Of a DNA stretch of 64,000 nt, positions 16,215 through 29,275 are shown in pieces. The stretch lies in the NCBI RefSeq assembly GCF_003790525.1, contig NZ_CP033635.1. One strand, written 5' to 3'. Both the position numbers and the translations under genes were made by a program. The notes under the pieces are model-generated. The model saw nothing but the letters and a program-made list of their open reading frames with translations. It did not search any database and was not told the DNA's origin. The stretch is from Escherichia coli. GTDB taxonomy: Bacteria > Pseudomonadota > Gammaproteobacteria > Enterobacterales > Enterobacteriaceae. Numbering within the stretch: position 1 is the first letter of the stretch; each line of letters starts with the position of its first letter.

Positions 16215-17114
16215 ATGGCAGAATTTCCCGCCAGCTTACTGATTCTTAATGGCAAAAGTACTGACAATCTACCCTTGCGCGAAGCAATTATGCTGTTGCG
16301 TGAGGAAGGAATGACGATCCATGTGCGGGTCACCTGGGAGAAAGGTGATGCCGCACGATTTGTAGAGGAGGCCCGGAAGTTGGGCGTCGCAACGGTGATT
16401 GCTGGAGGTGGCGATGGCACCATTAATGAAGTTTCTACGGCGTTGATTCAGTGTGAGGGGGATGACATACCCGCGCTGGGAATTTTACCATTAGGAACCG
16501 CCAATGATTTTGCCACCAGCGTAGGGATTCCTGAGGCACTGGATAAGGCGCTGAAACTGGCAATTGCCGGTGACGCCATTGCGATAGATATGGCGCAGGT
16601 CAACAAACAAACCTGTTTTATTAATATGGCGACAGGCGGATTTGGGACGCGTATTACCACAGAAACGCCGGAAAAATTAAAAGCCGCGCTGGGTAGCGTC
16701 TCTTACATCATTCATGGCTTAATGCGTATGGATACTCTGCAACCGGACCGTTGTGAAATCCGCGGTGAAAACTTTCACTGGCAAGGTGACGCCCTGGTCA
16801 TTGGTATTGGTAACGGGCGTCAGGCCGGTGGCGGTCAGCAATTGTGTCCGAACGCGTTAATTAACGATGGCTTGCTGCAACTGCGCATTTTTACCGGCGA
16901 TGAAATACTTCCGGCTCTCGTATCAACCTTAAAATCTGACGAAGATAACCCGAATATTATCGAAGGCGCTTCGTCGTGGTTTGATATTCAGGCACCACAC
17001 GACATCACCTTTAATCTTGATGGCGAACCGTTGAGTGGGCAAAATTTTCATATTGAAATACTTCCGGCAGCGTTGCGTTGCCGTCTGCCACCAGATTGCC
17101 CGCTTTTACGTTAA
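16215..17114 (+). CDS. yegS: Lipid kinase YegS (diacylglycerol-kinase catalytic-domain family, 299 aa)
   Basis: 299-aa ORF with GGDGT motif ([13 protein letters not shown]). Confidence 0.9.
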
Positions 17115-17187: not shown

Positions 17188-17841
17188 TTACGCAGCTACG
17201 GCTAACGCTGCCAGTAATTCATTCATCGATAAATATCTTGCACTCGCCGCATTAAAGCAGGTTTGTTGGGCATCTTCTGATACCACAATGGTGTTTATTC
17301 CTGCCGCCTGTGCTGCCTGAAAACCACTCACGCTGTCCTCTATAACCAAACAATCTGCAGCAGACAGTTGCAATTCTCGCAGTGCAGAAAGATAAACTGC
17401 CGGATGGGGTTTCCCATGCTTTTCGTCATCAGCACTACAAATCACCGAAAAATAATGCTGAATATTGAGTTTTGTCAGTACAGCATCGATCACCTGGTAA
17501 GATGAAGAGGTTGCCAGCGCCAGTTGATAGCCACTCCGGCGCAAAAAAAATAACACGTCCTGAACGCCTGGCATCGCTTCGCCCGTCCCGGCAATCAACG
17601 TAGTGATCAGGCGGCGAATCTCACTTTCCAACAGTGCGGGTTCAATGTGTAAATGACAATATTCACACCAGGTTTGGGCAATCTCATCCAGCCTTTTACC
17701 TTTAGTCAGTCTTATACACTCTTCGTCACTGACACATGCGCCCCACCTTGCCAGTGCTCCCTTTTGTGCCTCACGCCATAACCCTTCCGAATCAATGATG
17801 ACGCCGTCCATATCAAAAATGACTGCTTTACAATTAAACAT
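17188..17841 (-). CDS. HAD-superfamily sugar-phosphate phosphatase (217 aa)
   Basis: ORF 17188-17886 trimmed to ATG at 17841 preceded by GAGGAA; HAD motif I FDMDGVIIDS; lies immediately downstream of atlT. Confidence 0.8.
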   Translation of the reverse strand: MFNCKAVIFDMDGVIIDSEGLWREAQKGALARWGACVSDEECIRLTKGKRLDEIAQTWCEYCHLHIEPALLESEIRRLITTLIAGTGEAMPGVQDVLFFLRRSGYQLALATSSSYQVIDAVLTKLNIQHYFSVICSADDEKHGKPHPAVYLSALRELQLSAADCLVIEDSVSGFQAAQAAGINTIVVSEDAQQTCFNAASARYLSMNELLAALAVAA

Positions 17842-17885
17842 TGTTCCTCGCAATAAAGCCTGGCACCACACCAGGCTTGTCGTCA

Positions 17886-19163
17886 TCAGGAAATGGTGGC
17901 GGTCTTCCCTTCACACACTTGCTGATTTGAGAATCCCGGTTGTTCGACGCGAATAAACGGGCAAATAATAAACGCTATCACATACAGGGTGGTGTAAGCG
18001 ATAACCACACCAATAGTACTGAAATAAGGCAGAAGTACCACGGCGATTGCCGGAGCAAGGAAGTTGGACAACCCGGCTGAAAGGTTATAAACCGAAATAG
18101 CTGCTCCTTTATGTTTCGGTTCCAGTGCCGGGAAAACGGCTGCCATCGGTACGAATGCAGCAACAAAGATCCCCAGTGCCACCGCAGGTATCAGCGCCAT
18201 AGCAAAGTTATGACCGAAATGTTGCGGCATGTAGTAGAACGCCAGGCTTGAAAGCGCCATTCCCACGCAACCAAACCAGCGAACAACTTTCATCCAGCCC
18301 ATTTTCTCTGCCAGCACGCCCCAGAATACGTTAGAGAAGATGGTGGTAAAGAAGAAGACTGCCCAGACCTGCAACCACTCAGAGGTGGTAAAGCCCAGCT
18401 CATCAACAAACATCATCGGCATAATTACGGCGAATCCGAATAAAGATAAGGTGTTGATAATGCGAACAATACTGGAAAGCAAAATATTGCGGTTGGTATA
18501 AAGCAAAGTCACCGCACGGCCCAGTTCGCTAAACTTCTCTTTTGTGGTTAGGTTTTGCATATGGCGTGGTGTTTCTACTTTGCGCATAGAAATTAACGCA
18601 ACAGCGCCACCAACCCCACAGAAGGCCAGCGCCAGCCATAATGTTCCCATTTCGCCAATAAGCGGAATGGTAAAACTGGGGATGTAGCTGCCGAATACGC
18701 CGATACCAATAGAGTAAACTGCCCAGAACCAGCCCAGAGCAGCACTGGTGCTGTCACTGCGTACGTTATGGACAATCGCCACAATAAAGGCGTAGAGGAA
18801 CAGCGGATAGGCTAGGCCACGAATACCATAAAACAGCAGGATTAACCCATAGTTCGCCTGCCCCAGACCAAAGACCAGAAACAGCACGTGAAATACGCAC
18901 CACAGCACAAAGCCGATAAACATGGTTTTTTGTGGCGTAATAATTTCGGCAACTACGCCGGAAACCCAGGCGGAAAGCGCTGCCGCCAGGCCATAGAGCG
19001 TAAAGGCAAAGGAGGCTTCTGCAGGCGTGAAACCCAGTGCTTTAATGTAATGCGACAGGAATGCCAGTTCAAAACCGTCTCCGGTCATAAAGATGGCAAT
19101 GGCAATATATCCCCACACCAGATTTAAGGGTAATCCCAGCCATTGTTTATTTGTTAACGACAT
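17886..19163 (-). CDS. atlT: MFS pentitol transporter, D-arabitol operon (425 aa)
   Basis: ORF trimmed to MSLTNKQWLGL...; about 85% identical by eye to the second MFS protein at 26892-28166. Confidence 0.85.
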   Translation of the reverse strand: MSLTNKQWLGLPLNLVWGYIAIAIFMTGDGFELAFLSHYIKALGFTPAEASFAFTLYGLAAALSAWVSGVVAEIITPQKTMFIGFVLWCVFHVLFLVFGLGQANYGLILLFYGIRGLAYPLFLYAFIVAIVHNVRSDSTSAALGWFWAVYSIGIGVFGSYIPSFTIPLIGEMGTLWLALAFCGVGGAVALISMRKVETPRHMQNLTTKEKFSELGRAVTLLYTNRNILLSSIVRIINTLSLFGFAVIMPMMFVDELGFTTSEWLQVWAVFFFTTIFSNVFWGVLAEKMGWMKVVRWFGCVGMALSSLAFYYMPQHFGHNFAMALIPAVALGIFVAAFVPMAAVFPALEPKHKGAAISVYNLSAGLSNFLAPAIAVVLLPYFSTIGVVIAYTTLYVIAFIICPFIRVEQPGFSNQQVCEGKTATIS

Positions 19164-19231
19164 AGTGACCTCGTTTGTAGGATACAAAACGCCGCTCCGG
19201 TGCAAACACCGGAGGGCATTTGTGACAGATG

Positions 19232-20695
19232 TTATTGATTGCGATAGTTCAGGTCGTTGTGATACAGCGCAGTAAACTGCTGATATCGTTGCATCAGCGC
19301 ATTATGACGTTCAGGATCGCTGCGCCAGGTTTTGAAGATTTCAGGTTTTTCACACACTGCCGCCAGTGGTTTTCCCGCAGCAAGACAGGCCAGACGCGCG
19401 GCTCCCAGCGCCCCACCCGTTTCACCGCCTTTATGCGTCACCACTGGCATATCGAGAATATCGGCCAGTAACTGCGCCCAGAATGGACTTCTCGCCCCCC
19501 CACCTACCAGCGAGCATTGCTCAATTGCCGTACCGCTTTCTTGCAGGACTCGCAGCCCATCGGCAATACCAAAGCTGACGCCTTCCAGCACTGCATATCC
19601 CATTAGCGCACGCTGACTGGAGTGTGTCAGCGCCCAGAACAATCCCCGGGCATGAGGATCGTTATGTGGCGTACGTTCACCAGAAAGATACGGGAGGAAC
19701 ATCGGTGCACTGGCTTTGTCTGCATCAGAAAGTTGGGCAATCTCTTCCAGTAACTCTGTTTCCGTTACCCCCACCAGACGGCAGAACCATTGCAGACAAC
19801 TGGCGGCACTGAGCATTACACTCATCTGGTGCCATAAATTCGGTAGTACGTGACAGAAAGCATGGACTGCTGATTGCGGCGCAGGACGATAGGCATCAGT
19901 CACTACAAACAACACCCCGGAAGTTCCCAAAGAAATAAACGCATCTCCGGGAGAAACGGCCCCCACACCAATTGCGCTCACGGCGTTATCGCCACCGCCA
20001 CCAGCAACTACAACCGAAGATGTCAGCCCCCAACGGCTGGCAACTTCAGGGGAAAGAGTGGCAGAAACGTCACAACCTTCCACCAGTTCCGGCATATTCG
20101 CCCGTGTCAGGCCACATTTTTCCAGCAACGAATCTGACCAGTCGCGTTTTTCCACGTCGAGCCACAACGTGCCAGCAGAATCCGACATATCGGAAATCTT
20201 TTGGCCGGTCATTTTGAAACGCAAATAGTCTTTCGGCAGTAAAACGGTGGAAATGCGCGCAAAGTGCTGCGGCTCATGGCGCCGTACCCATAGCAATTTG
20301 GGGGCGGTAAATCCAGGCATCGCCAGGTTTCCCGCTACCTGATGCAACTCTGGTGCGATCTCTTCCAGCTCCGCACACTCCTGCGCACTGCGGGTGTCGT
20401 TCCATAAAATCGCCGGACGAATCGCCTCTCCTTTTTCATCCAACAGGACGGCACCATGCATTTGACCAGAAAGGCCAATGGCTTTGATCGCCTGCCAGTG
20501 GTGACCGCATTTTTCCCGCAGGGTCGACATTAAATATTCCGTCGCTTCCCACCAGGCTTGCGGCGATTGTTCTGACCAGTGTGGATGGGGCCGCTGAATG
20601 GTCAGCGGCGCACTATGGGTGGCAACAATTTCATTGTTTTCATCAATGACCAGCGCCTTAACTTCCGATGTGCCCAGATCGATACCCAGATACAT
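19232..20695 (-). CDS. atlK: FGGY-family kinase, xylulokinase-like (487 aa)
   Basis: N-terminus MYLGIDLGTSEVKA typical of FGGY sugar kinases; AGGAGG before the ATG. Confidence 0.85.
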   Translation of the reverse strand: MYLGIDLGTSEVKALVIDENNEIVATHSAPLTIQRPHPHWSEQSPQAWWEATEYLMSTLREKCGHHWQAIKAIGLSGQMHGAVLLDEKGEAIRPAILWNDTRSAQECAELEEIAPELHQVAGNLAMPGFTAPKLLWVRRHEPQHFARISTVLLPKDYLRFKMTGQKISDMSDSAGTLWLDVEKRDWSDSLLEKCGLTRANMPELVEGCDVSATLSPEVASRWGLTSSVVVAGGGGDNAVSAIGVGAVSPGDAFISLGTSGVLFVVTDAYRPAPQSAVHAFCHVLPNLWHQMSVMLSAASCLQWFCRLVGVTETELLEEIAQLSDADKASAPMFLPYLSGERTPHNDPHARGLFWALTHSSQRALMGYAVLEGVSFGIADGLRVLQESGTAIEQCSLVGGGARSPFWAQLLADILDMPVVTHKGGETGGALGAARLACLAAGKPLAAVCEKPEIFKTWRSDPERHNALMQRYQQFTALYHNDLNYRNQ

Positions 20696-20708
20696 AACCG
20701 CCTCCTGG

Positions 20709-22076
20709 TTAGTTAATTAACGCGTAGACGTCAGCGATTTTTTCGCGCAACAACGCGGCAAAATCTTCACGTTCGGTTAAATCGCCAAACAGCGCTTTAT
20801 CACTGGCATAAACAGCGACGGGATCGGCAGACTGGAACATTGCATGGACAGCTGGTGCATCAAGGATGCCATCCTGATATTCATAGGGCAGTTTGCCGTG
20901 ATGCCATTGCTCCATGAATACGTAAAACAGTGCAGGTAACATGGCGGTGGCATTCGGGCGAACGCCTCGCTGGTAGCACTCTCGCAGTGTGGGGGCAATC
21001 ATCGCCGGAATTTTCGAGAAACCATCCGCAGCGACGCGTTGGTTGGTGTCCTGAATATGTGGATTGGTAAAACGCTTGAGTACAACATCACGGTAGGTTG
21101 GCAAATCGATACCGTTATCGCCCAAGCAAGGAATGACATCTTCCGTCACGTAGCGGTCGGCAATCTGATAGATAAAATCGGTCATTGTGCTTTCGTGGAT
21201 ATATTTTTGACCGATTAACGTACCTGCCCAGGCGATGCAACTGTGTGAAGAGTTAAGAATGCGAATCTTCGCCTCTTCATAGGGGATTACCGACGCCACC
21301 AGTTCGACACCGACCTTCTCCAGTGCCGGACGGACATCACGGAAATTATCTTCCACGACCCACTGGATAAAGGTTTCGCCCATTACCGGCGCTTTATCGG
21401 CAATACCCGTTTGAGCCTTGATCCGTGCCGGAAGTTCTGCTGCCGGACGAGGCGTAATGCGGTCAACCATGGTATTCGGGCAAGTGGTATTTGTACTCAG
21501 CCAGTCGATGACATCCTGTTTGCCAGTTAGCTGGAGAAACTCAACCAGGCCATCATGGAAACGTTCACCATTATGGCGCACGTTATCGCAATTCAGCAGG
21601 GTTAGTGGTCCGGCGTTATTTGCCATACGTGCTTCGAGGATACGGGTAATAACACCGTAAATTGTTTTGCATCCCCCTTTAAGATCTGCCGCTAAATCAG
21701 GATTGTTAACTTCCAGTTTGTGACTGGTATTCAGGTAGTACCCGCCTTCGGTGACGGTGAAAGCAATCACTTTTGTCTTCGGATCTGCCCCTTCAGCAAT
21801 CAGCGGTTGTAAATCTGCCTGCCACGGTATCAACTTCTGAATTGAGGTGATCTCTTCATATTCGCTTACCCCTTCCGGGCTGACGGTTTCCAGCACATAG
21901 CGACCTTTCTGTGCACTGAGTGCCTGTACGACATGTTCAGCATCATTACGAATATTGCCCGCAGCAATGCTCCAGCGTTTATCGCCCATCACCTGCAAAC
22001 GGTGTAGATACCACGCCTGATGTGCGCGATGAAAAGAACCTAACCCGATGTGCAGCCATGTAAATTGTTCGTTCAT
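20709..22076 (-). CDS. atlD: Mannitol-dehydrogenase-family polyol dehydrogenase, D-arabitol 4-dehydrogenase-like (455 aa)
   Basis: ORF 20709-22121 trimmed to [21 protein letters not shown] (Rossmann N-terminus); the start could instead be 15 codons upstream. Confidence 0.8.
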
Positions 22077-22288
22077 TGTTTCGTTCTCCATTGACGTTAT
22101 GGCTGAACTGTAATCGAACATTTGAGTTAATTAAGAGCGTTAGATCACAAAAGAACAATTGACCAAAAAAATTACAAATGACCAAATCAAAGCAATAAAC
22201 TTGCCTCGCGGTAAAGCTATGGCCAAAATGACGCTAATCAGTTGCGGGATTTTCACGATTCCGCACGCCACTTTTGAGGTAGGGAAAC

Positions 22289-23230
22289 GTGAACAAAGAA
22301 GATGACATCAGGCTCGATCAAAAAGTACGGGCGGCATGGATGTACTACATTGCCGGACTTAATCAGAGTGAAATCGCAAGTCAGTTAGGTACTTCACGGC
22401 CAGTGGTTCAACGCCTGATAGCAGCAGCGAAAGACGAAGGGATTGTGTCGATTGGATTGCATCATCCGGTTGCCAACTGTCTCGATTATGCCCAACTGTT
22501 AAAGGAAAAGTACCAATTAACCGACTGCAATATTATGCCGGTTTACAGTATTGAAAGTACGCTCGACAGCGTGACATTTGGCTGTTATCAACTGATGGCG
22601 CGTTACTTACAGGGTGACAAACCGACCATCGTTGGTATTGGTTCTGGCTTAACGTTGAAGAAAACCATTAAACGTATCGATTTTGATAGTCAGAATACCC
22701 GCTGTGTGGCGCTGATTAGCGCCATGAATGAACACGGGCAATGTAACTATTACGACGACGTACCGCTGCTTTTGGCGAGAAAAATTCAGGGAAAATATTA
22801 CCAGTGGCCAGCTCCACGCTATGCTCAGTCCCGCGAAGAGTACCAAATGTGGTCAACCAATCGATTGTTCCGCAACGTCTCTACCGTAGCGCGTGACTCT
22901 GATGTTATTTTCGTGGGTATTGGTGCTTTAGGTCGTCAAAGCCCTATTTTCAAAGATGGCTTTATTGATGAGCAGCAACTGGAAGAGTTAACAGCACGCG
23001 GAGGCGTTGGTGAAATCCTCGGACGCTTTATTGATGCTGAAGGCAATGTTGTGGAAAGCCAGATCAACCAGATGATCACCAGCCATGATATCCGCGAAAG
23101 CAACTGCCCACGTATCGCAGCTGCCTGTGGTGAGGATAAACGTCCGGCGATCCTCGCAGCATTAAAAGGTGGGTGGATCAACGGTCTGGTCACCGATGAA
23201 CACACCGCACGCTGGTTGCTGACACGTTAA
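22289..23230 (+). CDS. atlR: SorC/DeoR-type sugar-binding transcriptional regulator (313 aa)
   Basis: N-terminal HTH (LNQSEIASQLGTSRPVVQRL) plus sugar-binding domain; divergent from atlDKT. Symbol assigned by adjacency only. Confidence 0.75.
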   Translation: MNKEDDIRLDQKVRAAWMYYIAGLNQSEIASQLGTSRPVVQRLIAAAKDEGIVSIGLHHPVANCLDYAQLLKEKYQLTDCNIMPVYSIESTLDSVTFGCYQLMARYLQGDKPTIVGIGSGLTLKKTIKRIDFDSQNTRCVALISAMNEHGQCNYYDDVPLLLARKIQGKYYQWPAPRYAQSREEYQMWSTNRLFRNVSTVARDSDVIFVGIGALGRQSPIFKDGFIDEQQLEELTARGGVGEILGRFIDAEGNVVESQINQMITSHDIRESNCPRIAAACGEDKRPAILAALKGGWINGLVTDEHTARWLLTR

Positions 23231-23232
23231 TC

Positions 23233-24264
23233 TCAGCTGACAACATTCAGGCTCGGAATGAGTTGTGGCGGTATCTCAATGCGACGCAGGGTGGTATCGC
23301 CAGAATCCACAATTTCAAACACTTTTTCGAGCATGGCGGGTACATCCTGACGAACCATATCGATATCGTGCCCGAGCAGAGAAACAAAAGGATCCCAGTC
23401 AAAACACCCCATTGGCGGTTGATTGGCTCCCGTCTGCCCGGTTTGCGCCAGCCAGCGAACCACCCCTTCAAGAGAGATTGTCGAGTTGACGAATAACCCG
23501 TGAAGCGATACTGCAGAGCTTTGGAAGACCTCTTTCAGTAATCCCTCTACGCGAGCAGAAGAGTAGCCGGTAACCAGTTTATGTTCATCCGGTACGGTTA
23601 TCCCCAAAGCCTGATGGGCATCGACAAAACCACATAAACGTTCAGCAGTATTGTTATCGCTTATACGTCCACCGACAAAAGTCAAAGGTGCCAGCTTGCC
23701 ATAGCGTTTCTGGCTGTTGGCTAAAATTCTTTCCGTCAATAATTTCGCCCCCATATAGTTATCAGAAATGATCGACGGCGCCAGTGTTCCCGGCAGATCC
23801 AGATTCAGTGTCGGTACGCCCGCTTGCTGGCACATTTGGGCTATTTTATCCGGTTGAGTCGCTCCGGTAGCAATGACCCAATCCACCTGCCAGGAGAGCA
23901 TGGCGCGAGCAGCCTCAATTTCCAGTTCTGGCTGTCGCCGCGTACAGGTGATGATTGGCAGTAATCCTCTGGCACGCGCCATCTCTTCAAATTTTTCGGC
24001 AATCGATCCAAAGTATCGGTTGTCATATTTCGGCACAATCATGCCAATAACGTTGGATTTTTTACTGCGCAGTAAACTTGCCTGCCGATTAATGGCATAT
24101 CCCTGCTCTTCCGCAATACGGGTGACCTTCTCAGCCAGCTTTGCGCTGATGCGTCGCTTTTTCCAGTTGCCATTCAAAATAGCGCTTACCGCACTGGCAG
24201 AAACGCCGGTTAATTCTGCCAGGTCGTAAATGGTCGTTTTCTTCGTTTTCTCAACGCGTGTCAC
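23233..24264 (-). CDS. rtlR: LacI-family transcriptional repressor (343 aa)
   Basis: LacI-type HTH (TIYDLAELTGVSASAVS) plus periplasmic-binding-like domain; divergent from rtlDKT. Symbol assigned by adjacency only. Confidence 0.75.
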   Translation of the reverse strand: MTRVEKTKKTTIYDLAELTGVSASAVSAILNGNWKKRRISAKLAEKVTRIAEEQGYAINRQASLLRSKKSNVIGMIVPKYDNRYFGSIAEKFEEMARARGLLPIITCTRRQPELEIEAARAMLSWQVDWVIATGATQPDKIAQMCQQAGVPTLNLDLPGTLAPSIISDNYMGAKLLTERILANSQKRYGKLAPLTFVGGRISDNNTAERLCGFVDAHQALGITVPDEHKLVTGYSSARVEGLLKEVFQSSAVSLHGLFVNSTISLEGVVRWLAQTGQTGANQPPMGCFDWDPFVSLLGHDIDMVRQDVPAMLEKVFEIVDSGDTTLRRIEIPPQLIPSLNVVS

Positions 24265-24422
24265 AAATTTGCCTCTTCATTTTGAATGTCTCTTGCTGAG
24301 AATTTAAGCAAGTGCTAGATCTGCTTCATCGATTGAGCAGTTTGCTTCACACGGCAGCTAAATTCCCGTTCAGTGCGTGCAAGCAAACAGAGACTATAAA
24401 TTCGCCCTGGTAAAAGGATTAT

Positions 24423-25175
24423 ATGATGAATCACTCTGTGCCCTCTATGAATACTCCCCTTAATGGCAAAGTTGCAGCTATCACTGGCGCTGCGTCAGGT
24501 ATTGGCCTGCAATGTGCAAAAACGCTGCTCGATGCAGGAGCAAAGGTAGTATTGATTGACCGGGAAGGCGACAAACTGCACAAGATTGTCGCTGAGTTAG
24601 GCGAAAACGCGTACGCGCTGCAACTCGATCTCTTCAATAATCAGCAAGTCGATAACATGCTGGCGGACATTATCGAACTGGCGGGTGGGCTGGATATTTT
24701 TCATGCCAATGCAGGCGCTTATATTGGCGGCCCAGTGGCTGAAGGTGATCCAGATGTCTGGGATCGTGTGTTAAATCTGAATATAAATGCGGCGTTTCGC
24801 TGTGTCCGTGCAGTCCTGCCGCATATGATTGCGCAGAGGTCGGGCGATATAATTTTTACCAGTTCCATCGCGGGCGTCGTTCCGGTTATCTGGGAACCGA
24901 TCTACACCGCGTCCAAATTTGCCGTTCAGGCATTCGTACACACTACCCGCCGCCAGGTTTCTCAATATGGCGTGCGTGTGGGTGCGGTGCTGCCAGGACC
25001 AGTAGTCACTGCCCTGCTTGATGACTGGCCAAAAGCCAAAATGGAAGAAGCCCTGGCAAATGGTAGCCTGATGCAACCGATTGAAGTGGCGGAATCAGTA
25101 TTGTTTATGGTGACCCGCTCGAAAAATGTCACCGTGCGAGATTTAGTGATCCTGCCTGGCAGTGTCGATCTGTAA
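24423..25175 (+). CDS. rtlD: Short-chain dehydrogenase/reductase, ribitol 2-dehydrogenase-like (about 249 aa)
   Basis: SDR motifs TGAASGIG and YTASK; the start may be the second ATG at 24426. Confidence 0.85.
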
Positions 25176-25185
25176 GGGCGCAATC

Positions 25186-26790
25186 ATGACAATAACCAAA
25201 ACCGTTATTGGTGTTGATGTGGGATCAGGCAGTGTCCGCGCCGGGATTTTTGATCTCAACGGATCTCTGCTATCCCATGCCACAGAAAAAATCACGACTA
25301 CGCGGCGCAGCGGAAGCCGCGTGGAACAGTCCAGCCAGGAGATCTGGCAGGCGGTCTGTTCATGTATTCGTAATGCGCTCACTCTGGCAGACGTTTGTGC
25401 ACAAAGTGTGGCAGGCATCGGTTTTGATGCCACCTGTTCTCTGGTGGTACTGGATAAAAACGGTGATCCATTGCCTGTCAGCCCGGAAGGAGATGCAAAG
25501 CAAAATATCATTGTGTGGATGGATCACCGCGCCACCGAACAAGCAGAGCGAATCAATGCCACTCACCATCCGGTGCTGAACTACGTCGGTGGTAAAATTT
25601 CGCCTGAAATGGAAACACCGAAAATTCTCTGGCTGAAAGAAAATATGCCAGAGATCTACGAACGTGCCGGACAATTTTTCGATCTGGCCGATTTTCTGAC
25701 CTGGCGGGCTACCGGTGATTTAGCGCGTTCAGTATGCACTGTTACCTGTAAATGGACGTGGCTGGCACATGAAAATCGCTGGGATCCAGATTATTTCCGC
25801 ACCATTGGCCTTGCAGAGTTAGCGGATGAAGATTTTATTCGCATTGGTCATCATATTGTTTCTCCCGGAACACCTTGTGGAAATGGTTTAACAGCACAAG
25901 CCGCGGCAGAGATGGGATTACTCCCCGGCACACCTGTCGCTGTAGGGTTAATTGATGCTCACGCTGGTGGCATCGGTACGGTTGGCGTAGAAGGTGGAGC
26001 GCTGAACAATCTCGCGTATGTTTTCGGCACTTCTTCATGCACCATGGCATCTACCACTTCTCCCTCGTTTGTACCGGGTGTCTGGGGGCCGTATTACAGT
26101 GCGATGGTTCCAGGTCTGTGGTTAGTTGAAGGCGGGCAAAGTGCTGCGGGAGCAGCTATTGACCAGCTACTTGATTTCCATCCGGCTGTTGAAGAAGCTC
26201 GCGAAATGGCACAACGTGTGAATCAGCCCCTCCCCGTCTGGCTTGCTGATCGAATCCTCGAAAAAACGGCGCAACCATCAGATGCTGTCGCCCTGGCGAA
26301 AGGGCTACACGTGGTGCCGGAATTTCTCGGAAATCGCGCCCCCTTCGCAGATCCTCATGCCAGAGCGGTAATTTGTGGCCTGGGTATGGAGCGAGATCTG
26401 GATAATTTACTCGCCTTGTATATCGCTGGATTATGCGGAATTGGTTATGGTCTGCGCCAAATTCTCGACGCTCAAACAGCGCAGGGAGTAGTGAGTAAAA
26501 ATATCGTTATTAGCGGCGGTGCCGGGCAGCATCCACTGGTACGACAAATTCTGGCAGATACCTGCGGTATTCCGGTCATTACCACGCAATGCTGCGAACC
26601 GGTTTTATTAGGCTCGGCCATTCTTGGTGCTGTCGCCGGAAATATTGCACCTTCTGTTGGCGAAGCGATGCAACAATTCACCCATGTGGATAAATATTAT
26701 TATCCGCAAGAACGCTATCAATCTCTTCATCATCGTCGATATGAGGCCTATAAGCAGTTGCAGCATACTGCAAAATTACTCAGAGACTAA
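25186..26790 (+). CDS. rtlK: FGGY-family kinase, D-ribulokinase-like (534 aa)
   Basis: ORF 25162-26790 trimmed to ATG at 25186 (MTITKTVIGVDVGSGSVRAG...), 10 bp after the rtlD stop. Confidence 0.85.
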   Translation: MTITKTVIGVDVGSGSVRAGIFDLNGSLLSHATEKITTTRRSGSRVEQSSQEIWQAVCSCIRNALTLADVCAQSVAGIGFDATCSLVVLDKNGDPLPVSPEGDAKQNIIVWMDHRATEQAERINATHHPVLNYVGGKISPEMETPKILWLKENMPEIYERAGQFFDLADFLTWRATGDLARSVCTVTCKWTWLAHENRWDPDYFRTIGLAELADEDFIRIGHHIVSPGTPCGNGLTAQAAAEMGLLPGTPVAVGLIDAHAGGIGTVGVEGGALNNLAYVFGTSSCTMASTTSPSFVPGVWGPYYSAMVPGLWLVEGGQSAAGAAIDQLLDFHPAVEEAREMAQRVNQPLPVWLADRILEKTAQPSDAVALAKGLHVVPEFLGNRAPFADPHARAVICGLGMERDLDNLLALYIAGLCGIGYGLRQILDAQTAQGVVSKNIVISGGAGQHPLVRQILADTCGIPVITTQCCEPVLLGSAILGAVAGNIAPSVGEAMQQFTHVDKYYYPQERYQSLHHRRYEAYKQLQHTAKLLRD

Positions 26791-26891
26791 TTAACCAGCC
26801 GCCTGACGCTGTTTTCAGGCAATCACTAATAACGACTCACTCCGGTAATATCCCGGAGTGCATTCATCTGCACCCTAAAAACGAGGTTTAT

Positions 26892-28166
26892 ATGTCCAGA
26901 AATAATAAACAGTGGTTGGGTTTGCCACTGCATCTGATATGGGGATATATCGCCATCGCAGTATTTATGACTGGTGATGGTTTCGAACTCGCATTCTTAT
27001 CGCACTATATTAAATCGTTAGGCTTCACACCTGCGGAAGCCTCTTTTGCCTTTACGCTCTACGGCCTGGCGGCTGCCCTTTCCGCCTGGGTTTCTGGGGT
27101 AGTAGCGGAAATCATCACGCCGCAAAAAACCATGCTGATTGGTTTTGTCCTATGGTGCGTATTCCATGTTCTGTTTCTGGTCTTTGGATTAGGACAGGCA
27201 AACTATGGGTTAATCCTGCTGTTTTACGGGATTCGTGGTTTAGCGTATCCGCTATTTCTCTACTCATTTATCGTCGTTATTATTCATAACGTGCGTAGCG
27301 AAAATTCCAGTTCTGCTCTGGGTTGGTACTGGGCGGTATATTCAGTAGGGATCGGTGTTGCTGGCAGTTATATTCCCAGTTTTACGATACCGATTATGGG
27401 TGAAATGGGAACCTTATGGCTGGCACTGGCGTTCTGCTTTGCTGGCGGTGTCATTGCCATGATCTCCTTGCGTCATGTTAAAACGCCTGGACATATGCAT
27501 AATTTAACTCCCCGTGAGAAGTTTGCAGAATTAAGTCGGGCAGTAACTTTACTTTATACCAACCGCAATATTTTTCTCTCCAGTATTGTGCGCATTATAA
27601 ATACCTTATCGTTATTCGGTTTTGCGGTCATTATGCCAATGATGTTTGTGGATGAACTGGGATTCACCACCTCTGAATGGTTGCAGGTCTGGGCGGCATT
27701 TTTCTTTACCACTATTTTCTCTAATATTTTTTGGGGGATTGTGGCAGAAAAAATGGGCTGGATGCGTGTTATTCGCTGGTTTGGTTGCCTCGGGATGGCA
27801 GCATCAAGTTTAGCGTTTTACTACATGCCGCAATACTTTGGTCACAACTACTGGATGGCAATGATTCCGGCGATTGCTCTGGGAACTTTTGTTGCTGCAT
27901 TTGTGCCGATGGCCGCTGTCTTCCCGGCACTGGAACCAAAACACAAAGGTGCTGCAATCTCGGTTTACAACCTCTCTGCGGGTATGTCTAACTTCCTGGC
28001 TCCGGCAATTGCCGTGGTGTTATTACCGTGGTTTAGCACTATCGGTGTGGTCATTGCCTATACAGCATTGTATCTATTGGCCTTTGTCCTTTGCGCATTC
28101 ATTCGCGTTGAGCAGCCAGGATTCAGTTCTGCGCCAGTGACTGAGAAGGCATTGAATATCTCCTGA
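26892..28166 (+). CDS. rtlT: MFS pentitol transporter, ribitol operon (424 aa)
   Basis: Paralog of atlT (MSRNNKQWLGLPLHLIWGYIAIAVF...). Confidence 0.85.
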   Translation: MSRNNKQWLGLPLHLIWGYIAIAVFMTGDGFELAFLSHYIKSLGFTPAEASFAFTLYGLAAALSAWVSGVVAEIITPQKTMLIGFVLWCVFHVLFLVFGLGQANYGLILLFYGIRGLAYPLFLYSFIVVIIHNVRSENSSSALGWYWAVYSVGIGVAGSYIPSFTIPIMGEMGTLWLALAFCFAGGVIAMISLRHVKTPGHMHNLTPREKFAELSRAVTLLYTNRNIFLSSIVRIINTLSLFGFAVIMPMMFVDELGFTTSEWLQVWAAFFFTTIFSNIFWGIVAEKMGWMRVIRWFGCLGMAASSLAFYYMPQYFGHNYWMAMIPAIALGTFVAAFVPMAAVFPALEPKHKGAAISVYNLSAGMSNFLAPAIAVVLLPWFSTIGVVIAYTALYLLAFVLCAFIRVEQPGFSSAPVTEKALNIS

Positions 28167-28222: not shown

Positions 28223-29275
28223 TCAGGCAATAGTGACTTTGTTATCGAGATAAACGTCCTGCACGGCGTTAATCAGTTTCACGCCGTCAGCCATCGATTT
28301 CTTAAATGCTTTCCGCCCCAGAATCAGCCCCATTCCGCCTGCGCGTTTGTTGATAACCGCAGTACGCACTGCATCGCTGAGGTCAGTTTCACCGCCCGCA
28401 GCACCGCCGGAGTTTATCAACCCAGCCCGACCCATATAGCAGTTAGCTAACTGATAACGCACCAGATCAATCGGGTTTTCGCTGGTCAATTTGCTGTAAA
28501 CACGATCGTCGGTGTAACCGTAATTAATTGCTTTATAGCCGCCGTTATTTTCCGCCATTTTTTGTTTGACGATATCTGCACCGATGGTTGCCGCCAGATG
28601 GTTTGCCTGACCGGTCAGGTCGGCGGAAACATGGTAATCAACGCCATCTTTCTTAAAGGCGGAGTTACGCAAATAGGCCCACAGCACTGTCACCATACCC
28701 AGCTCGTGCGCACGTTCAAAAGCCGCAGAAATTTCTTCAATCTGGCGACGTGACTCTTCCGAGCCAAAATAGATAGTCGCACCAACCGCAACCGCGCCCA
28801 TGTTGAACGCCTGCTCCACGCTGGCATACAGCGTTTGATCGTAGGTATTCGGGTAACTTAGCGTCTCGTTGTGATTAAGTTTGACGAGGAATGGAATGCG
28901 ATGCGCATAACGCCGCGATACCGACGCCAGCACGCCGTAAGTTGACGCCACACAGTTACAGCCCGCTTCGATCGCCAGTTCAACAATGTTTTTCGGGTCA
29001 AAGTAGAGCGGGTTAGCAGCAAATGAAGCTCCGGCAGAGTGCTCAACGCCCTGGTCAACCGGCAGAATAGAAAGATATCCTGTGCCAGCCAGACGCCCGG
29101 TGTTGTACAACGTCTGCATATTACGTAACACCGCTGGCGGGCGATTATTGTCAATCATTACGCGGTCTACGTAGTCATGTCCGGGGAGATAAAGCTGGTC
29201 AGAAGGAATTGTCATACAACGGTGCTGTAAAAGGTTGTCGGCGTCTTTGCCAAGCAACTGCGCAATATCTGTCAT
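28223..29275 (-). CDS. fbaB: Class I fructose-bisphosphate aldolase FbaB (350 aa)
   Basis: ORF 28223-29347 trimmed to [20 protein letters not shown]..., the FbaB N-terminus as remembered. Confidence 0.9.

Follow-up and report, generated by a model that had tools for sequence, protein, structure and literature searches.

Inverted permease genes atlT and rtlT of the Escherichia coli pentitol island are very probably old, recombinationally inert paralogs whose counterparts in related genera undergo gene conversion

The rtl-atl pentitol island of Enterobacteriaceae, found here in a window of 64,000 nucleotides (nt) of Escherichia coli DNA (RefSeq assembly GCF_003790525.1, contig NZ_CP033635.1), ends on either side in a transporter gene of the major facilitator superfamily (MFS). 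These two genes, atlT (17886..19163, minus strand) and rtlT (26892..28166, plus strand), form a long inverted repeat, which a first-pass annotation of the window proposed as a substrate for inversion of the intervening operons or for gene conversion between the transporters. Our analysis of the pair in E. coli and in related genera indicates, with high confidence, that E. coli atlT and rtlT are old, diverged paralogs that are recombinationally inert and owe their remaining similarity to selection, and that the corresponding pairs of relatives do convert. The pair would go back to an old duplication of a transporter gene alone. In E. coli, the 85% protein identity would be kept by purifying selection (ratio of nonsynonymous [dN] to synonymous [dS] divergence, ~0.05) and not by DNA exchange; presumably, no identical segment is long enough to start strand exchange, and mismatch repair would reject exchange across 23% mismatches. 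In Enterobacter, Raoultella, and more weakly in Klebsiella pneumoniae, where the two copies are more alike, nonreciprocal conversion homogenizes the core of the gene and spares its 3' tail.

Open reading frames and RefSeq coding sequences (CDSs) place both transporter genes at the coordinates and on the strands of the first-pass annotation. A repeat search over a 16-kb region delimited the arms of the inverted repeat at 17931..19186 and 26869..28124, i.e., 1256 nt each, 78% complementary and separated by 7682 nt, in good agreement with the ~1.3-kb repeats about 7.7 kb apart that had been described. The repeat is far beyond chance, since the next-longest inverted repeat in this region measures only 32 nt. 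Its left arm comprises the CDS minus the 3' tail plus a 23-nt leader with the ribosome-binding site; the repeat thus spans ribosome-binding site and CDS and stops ~45 nt short of the CDS end, where a diverged C-terminal tail is encoded. Close paralogy between the two operons is limited to the transporter genes; dehydrogenases (mannitol-dehydrogenase family versus SDR) and regulators (SorC type versus LacI type) are unrelated, and the repeated unit is therefore the transporter gene with its ribosome-binding site. The wording "near-identical" used for this pair holds loosely, and for the proteins only: the alignment yields 361/424 identical residues (85.1%, as against the ~85% estimated at first pass) and 980/1272 identical nucleotides (77.0%).

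This DNA divergence is concentrated at silent positions, with identities of 86, 94, and 51% at codon positions 1, 2, and 3, respectively. With a dN of 0.094-0.098 and a dS of 1.79, synonymous sites of the E. coli pair are close to saturation, a value that rules out a recent inverted duplication as the origin of the pair. The two longest exact tracts measure 26 and 23 bp, and six of 17 bp come next. These lengths are at chance expectation, because the longest run averages 23.1 (standard deviation, 4.6) when codon columns are shuffled, with P = 0.28 for a run of at least 26, and the two longest tracts are thus a chance product of this level of divergence. In bacteria, the minimal identical segment for recombination is at most ~30 bp, recombination falls exponentially with divergence, and an exchange that starts in identical sequence and proceeds into mismatches is aborted by mismatch repair (reviewed in PMC8918686). 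The E. coli pair has no identical tract clearly longer than the minimal segment for RecA-mediated exchange. The first-pass annotation had itself named the lack of exact tracts over about 20-30 bp as the ground on which its proposal should be given up, and the nucleotide alignment delivers essentially this outcome. A second island allele, carried by 27 E. coli genomes (e.g., O55:H7 strain DEC5D) and ~83% identical in DNA to the window allele, provides a divergent atlT for comparison. Relative to this O55:H7-type gene, sites common to atlT and rtlT of the window are neither in significant excess (92 versus 71, P = 0.12) nor clustered, and the paralogs (dS 1.79) are not less diverged than the two E. 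coli atlT alleles are from each other (dS 1.16). Judged by these comparisons, the window pair carries no trace of conversion.

Population-level searches in E. coli point in the same direction. Of 5,426 complete E. coli genomes, 330 (~6%) contain the island interior, and 303 of these 330 carry the window allele at an identity of at least 99%; neither inverted nor chimeric variants were found among these natural isolates. Since megablast needs an exact word of 28 bp and the paralogs share at most 26 bp, each gene should find only itself. Used as a query, atlT matched exactly one place in 304/304 genomes, always at an identity of at least 99% and with a coverage of at least 80% in 303 of the 304. 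Such unsplit genes argue against crossover, because crossover inside the genes would split atlT into two places. A conversion bait with rtlT set in the atlT position, between the neighboring HAD-family phosphatase gene and atlK, was judged by its score ceiling and not by coverage, as megablast extended through the 77% identical middle. The bait aligned end to end at a uniform 91.8% identity, with a top score of 4879 bits versus a baseline of 4874 bits, and revealed no rtlT-derived tract in atlT in any genome searched. Similarly, an inversion bait that joined the HAD gene to the reverse complement of rtlK was recovered with its two halves joined in 0 of 307 genomes. The colinear 14-kb region occurs in 314 genomes, matching the 314 that hold the interior, a count that is not rigorous in that partial deletions could compensate.

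Relatives of E. coli tell a different story about the same gene pair. A scan of one genome per species, onto whose loci nine island proteins were mapped, returned 77 loci. In every locus with both flanks captured (E. coli and several genera), the island lies between yegS and fbaB; at all loci that show a flank, the HAD gene and yegS are on the atl side and fbaB is on the rtl side. The mirror layout with two transporters is found in K. pneumoniae, Raoultella ornithinolytica, another Raoultella, and Enterobacter, and rtlDK comes without a transporter gene in Leclercia, Klebsiella oxytoca, Klebsiella michiganensis, Klebsiella spallanzanii, Raoultella terrigena, and the O55:H7-type E. coli allele. 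In the transporter gene tree, each rtl-side copy clusters with its atl-side partner from the same genome, and the rtl side is not recovered as a clade. Within-genome divergence decreases from the E. coli pair (dS 1.79, longest exact tract 26 bp), which is the most diverged among the two-copy genomes examined, through K. pneumoniae (dS 0.72, 36 bp) and Enterobacter type B (dS 0.30, 245 bp) to Enterobacter type A (dS 0.13, 943 bp) and the Raoultella pairs (dS 0.12-0.13, 182-263 bp).

The two Raoultella species make the case for homogenization in a simple comparison, the paralogs within a genome being closer (dS 0.12-0.13) than the orthologs between species (dS 0.39-0.40) and also closer than neighboring genes (dS 0.43-0.56). 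Informative sites in this quartet group the paralogs of a genome 87 times, the orthologs 23 times, and follow the third pattern 4 times. All 23 ortholog-grouping sites fall within nt 830-861 or at the 3' end, and segment trees agree with this partition, i.e., the core groups by genome and, in Raoultella, the 3' tail groups by orthology. The internal unconverted patch encodes a FWGIVAEKMGWM motif that E. coli, K. pneumoniae, and both Raoultella have in common in their rtl-side copies. In addition, a diagnostic column holds valine in 5/6 rtl-side copies and isoleucine in 30/30 atl-side copies.

In Enterobacter, exact tracts between the two copies reach 943, 890, and 767 bp, and one pair of permeases differs only in residues 1-67 and the C-terminal tail. 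At three loci the two copies are identical from nt 201 to ~1144; at another three, their identity drops to 82.6% within nt 300-650. The atl-side copies of these two groups differ from each other at ~60 sites (nt 336-651), at which the first group equals the rtl-side copy; this strain polymorphism shows a recent rtl-to-atl conversion tract. The canonical island orientation was nonetheless retained at 7/7 Enterobacter loci, at both Raoultella loci, and at the full K. pneumoniae locus with its flanks; a second K. pneumoniae locus, of which only the yegS-side flank was captured, agrees with it. Conversion therefore occurs without accompanying fixed inversion in this small multigenus sample, and none of the genomes examined, whatever the genus, showed an inversion. 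Of the two outcomes proposed at first pass, inversion of the operons is thus unsupported at the E. coli locus and elsewhere; gene conversion leaves no tract in E. coli and proves to be a property of the gene pair as a family, documented in Enterobacter and Raoultella.

The shared motif and the diagnostic residue favor one old duplication followed by homogenization over repeated duplications. On balance, we read the pair as a natural series in which concerted evolution is captured at different points across genera, with conversion probably ongoing in Enterobacter and Raoultella, weakened in K. pneumoniae, and escaped by divergence in E. coli. Conversion would, on the same balance, always spare the 3' tail and, depending on the lineage, also the first ~200 nt or codons ~277-287. 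If this holds, either selection keeps small specificity-determining segments distinct or both permeases are functionally interchangeable.

Several observations weigh against this combined picture of an inert E. coli pair and a single ancient duplication. The rtlT query hit 309 places in 307 genomes, with two genomes contributing two places each. An insertion splitting rtlT is the likely cause, and a converted atlT or an inversion in these two genomes is excluded by the atlT, conversion-bait, and inversion-bait tests. Complete assemblies report the majority configuration only, and low-frequency subpopulations are invisible to them. The 26-bp and 23-bp tracts lie near the minimal segment, and very rare exchange may occur, especially in mismatch-repair mutators. 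As for the single duplication, its support is moderate because the FWGIVAEKMGWM motif is also present in some single-transporter genera (e.g., Dryocola and Cedecea); the model draws on this short motif and one diagnostic column.

Among competing explanations, the one that survives best, albeit as an unlikely one, holds that rtlT or the whole rtl half was imported from another lineage, so that the repeat would juxtapose homologs that had already diverged. E. coli rtlT does stand alone on a long branch, and its protein is closer to Enterobacter transporters (88-90%) than to its own atlT partner (85%). Moreover, the two E. coli island alleles differ by a dS of 1.0-1.35 in island genes versus 0.145 in the flanking yegS, which shows that import of whole islands occurs, and the O55:H7-type allele has no rtlT at all. 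These points are countered by the presence of a second transporter downstream of rtlK and beside fbaB in four genera, by the motif and diagnostic residue that rtl-side copies share across genera, and by a nucleotide identity of E. coli rtlT to any copy examined of at most ~77%, with no recent donor evident. The issue concerns origin only and leaves the conclusion of an inert E. coli pair unchanged.

We regard as very improbable that the repeats are active in E. coli, flipping the 7.7-kb interior or exchanging transporter sequence at an appreciable rate. A 1256-nt inverted repeat does exist, its two longest exact tracts approach the minimal identical segment, and the same pair converts in Enterobacter and Raoultella. 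An inversion through the transporter genes would leave both operons intact with chimeric permeases and would thus probably be tolerated. Nevertheless, 77% identity with a dS of 1.79 and chance-level tracts, the absence of any inverted genome among 307, an unsplit atlT in 304/304 with no conversion tract, and the signal-free comparison with O55:H7-type atlT largely refute such activity at the level of fixed genomes. Least credible of all is a composite-transposon-like mobile element with the repeats as its arms, an idea prompted by ~1.3-kb inverted repeats that bracket a dispensable block present in ~6% of E. coli genomes in alternation with gat, which we reject since the arms encode MFS transporters and show neither a transposase nor insertion sequence (IS) features, no direct repeat of at least 8 bp (and hence no target-site duplication) lies beside the arms or island borders, the island always sits at the yegS-fbaB locus (E. 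coli, Enterobacter, Klebsiella, Raoultella, and Leclercia), neither its interior nor either transporter gene matched any plasmid in the E. coli set, no block bounded by both transporter genes was found at another site with target duplications, and many relatives as well as the O55:H7-type allele carry the island with one transporter gene only.

The repeat itself has a long history. Link and Reiner (Nature, 1982) reportedly saw imperfect inverted repeats of ~1.4 kb around the rtl-atl genes of E. coli C by heteroduplex mapping, i.e., without sequence, and are said to have raised the idea of a mobile element. The shared island, the size (~1.3-1.4 kb), and the gat position make it very likely that this is the same feature, here resolved as a pair of transporter genes with 77% nucleotide identity. 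The pentitol permeases of Klebsiella, dalT and rbtT, were reportedly sequenced by Heuel et al. in 1997-98 and found ~86% identical (Microbiology, 1998; J Bacteriol, 1997), and the title of the 1997 paper announces active DalT/RbtT hybrids. The K. pneumoniae dalDKT/rbtDKT genes resemble the E. coli island in gene order, mirror symmetry, and flanks, and our values for that pair (85.4% at the amino acid level and 82.3% at the nucleotide level) are close to those of E. coli and fit the reported figure. Differences lie in the DNA, the E. coli orthologs being only 75-77% identical to the Klebsiella genes and the E. coli pair showing a dS of 1.79 as against 0.72. Active hybrids, as in the 1997 title, fit with the natural chimeras of relatives.

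A parallel to the process is offered by tufA and tufB, inverted paralogs on one chromosome that are homogenized by RecA-dependent gene conversion and whose concerted evolution was reportedly described by Abdulkarim and Hughes in 1996 and by Lathe and Bork in 2001. Like these genes, the Raoultella and Enterobacter pairs are more alike within a genome than orthologs are between species. In contrast, the E. coli pair of the window shows no homogenization, the pentitol arms are 7.7 kb and not hundreds of kilobases apart, and conversion in relatives is partial and mosaic, leaves the 3' tail distinct, and came with no inversion. To our knowledge, concerted evolution of dalT/rbtT has not been described. 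The inverted repeats and the DalT/RbtT pair have reportedly been described before, and the conversion series across genera is the sole, modestly new element, of a familiar kind (tufA/tufB type).

In practical terms, the E. coli genes are ordinary diverged paralogs in a long-studied island and pose no detectable risk of rearrangement. The series that runs from E. coli to Enterobacter provides a compact natural example of divergence shutting down conversion between inverted repeats, and it could point to the parts of the permeases, if any, that determine substrate choice. Near-identical copies in Enterobacter and Raoultella render the best-hit labels "DalT" and "RbtT" unreliable and break short-read assemblies symmetrically inside both genes. 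Three Enterobacter cloacae contigs from independent short-read assemblies (9285 bp at loci L056 and L082 and 7957 bp at L083) end in this manner, at gene nt ~781 or ~117. Such symmetric ends are the signature of exact inverted repeats, and the island orientation is unresolvable in such assemblies.

The annotation of the island was taken from a RefSeq genome 100% identical to the window in this region. Both transporters are annotated there as RbtT/DalT/CsbX family MFS transporters (atlT, WP_000060034.1; rtlT, WP_000089321.1), and both match TIGR00897 over its full length (positions 1-401/401) at 514 and 514.7 bits, respectively, above the cutoff of 375, which places them in this family. Homologous to dalT and rbtT, they come last in the atlDKT and rtlDKT operons, each of which also encodes a pentulose kinase and a pentitol dehydrogenase. 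Their place in these operons and the literature on Klebsiella suggest that each permease imports the pentitol of its own operon, i.e., D-arabitol for AtlT and ribitol for RtlT. The RefSeq gene order is yegS, HAD gene, atlT, xylB, dalD, sugar-binding regulator, LacI regulator, SDR gene, FGGY kinase gene, rtlT, and fbaB. The window thus reads T-K-D-R and then R-D-K-T as a mirror image, with atlD-atlK-atlT running leftward, rtlD-rtlK-rtlT running rightward, and the regulator genes back to back in the center.

On the atl side, atlK (19232..20695, minus strand) encodes a XylB-type D-xylulokinase (TIGR01312 XylB, 636 bits; cutoff, 380), and atlD (dalD; 20709..22076, minus strand) encodes D-arabinitol 4-dehydrogenase (NF043014 DalD, 756 bits; cutoff, 600). 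The regulator gene atlR (22289..23230, plus strand) specifies a protein of the SorC/DeoR sugar-binding type, with weak, below-cutoff matches to DeoR/LsrR models. The rtl half begins with rtlR (23233..24264, minus strand), which matches LacI-family regulators, followed by rtlD (24426..25175, plus strand), an SDR-family dehydrogenase that context and the Klebsiella rbt operon suggest to be ribitol 2-dehydrogenase, and rtlK (25186..26790, plus strand), an FGGY pentulose kinase (TIGR01315, 920 bits; cutoff, 409) that is probably a D-ribulokinase by context. The conserved flanks are yegS on the left (16215..17114, plus strand) and fbaB on the right (28223..29275, minus strand). At the atl end lies the HAD-family phosphatase gene (17188..17841, minus strand), an HxpB-like match of 171 bits, below the cutoff of 191. 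It is found directly downstream of atlT at more than 25 loci across Enterobacteriaceae and Vibrio, and a terminator-like hairpin precedes it at 17852-17879.

Both kinase-transporter intergenic regions (19194-19215, minus strand; 26838-26860, plus strand) contain a CTCCGG...CCGGAG stem-loop ~30-50 nt upstream of a AAACGAGGT ribosome-binding site common to both copies, followed in the atl copy by a short T-run. These stem-loops may set the level of transporter expression, either as attenuators between cistrons or as mRNA-stability elements.

The window is chromosomal E. coli DNA, and its 14 kb that surround the transporter pair are 100% identical to several complete E. coli genomes. Strain NCTC122, which we take from strain history to be E. 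coli C, is among the carriers of the window allele, and its island is 99.9% identical to the window interior. No gat genes occur in the window, where the island fills the interval between yegS and fbaB. Articles that cite the "genotypic exclusion" paper of Link and Reiner from 1983 (PMC2806823 and PMC6805351) describe the ribitol/arabitol genes as alternating with the gat operon, and the yegS-fbaB island occupies the place where K-12-type strains carry that operon. The O55:H7-type allele makes an exception to replacement: an internal stop makes its rtlD a pseudogene, and its island runs directly into gatR and the gat operon, with which it coexists.

Some database records of these genes call for caution. 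Contamination or misbinning is suggested for two loci labeled Bacteroidota ("Chryseobacterium sp. 18061" and a "Lacinutrix" metagenome-assembled genome), whose sequence and synteny are Enterobacterales- or Vibrio-like, with 79-84% identity to E. coli AtlT at the protein level. In several NCBI records, the permeases go by the name "cytochrome C biogenesis protein CcdA," which looks like an annotation error that has spread.

Finally, two truncated genes, atlT in E. coli LF3-1 and rtlT in E. coli PSS-08-2, were considered as recombinants and ruled out, both being IS1-associated deletions. LF3-1 (NZ_CM139230.1) has lost the whole island interior and retains a single IS1A at the junction, flanked by what is left of the two 3' ends, nt 361-1275 of rtlT and nt 370-1278 of atlT. 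The breakpoints lie at homologous positions offset by exactly 9 bp, the length of the IS1 target duplication. In this one genome, the pattern is consistent with two steps, IS1 first inserting into rtlT at nt 361-369 and then using the homologous atlT site in an intramolecular event. In PSS-08-2, an IS1A-associated deletion between the yeh fimbrial usher gene and nt 730 of rtlT has removed the island together with ~40 kb of neighboring chromosome that is present in the window.

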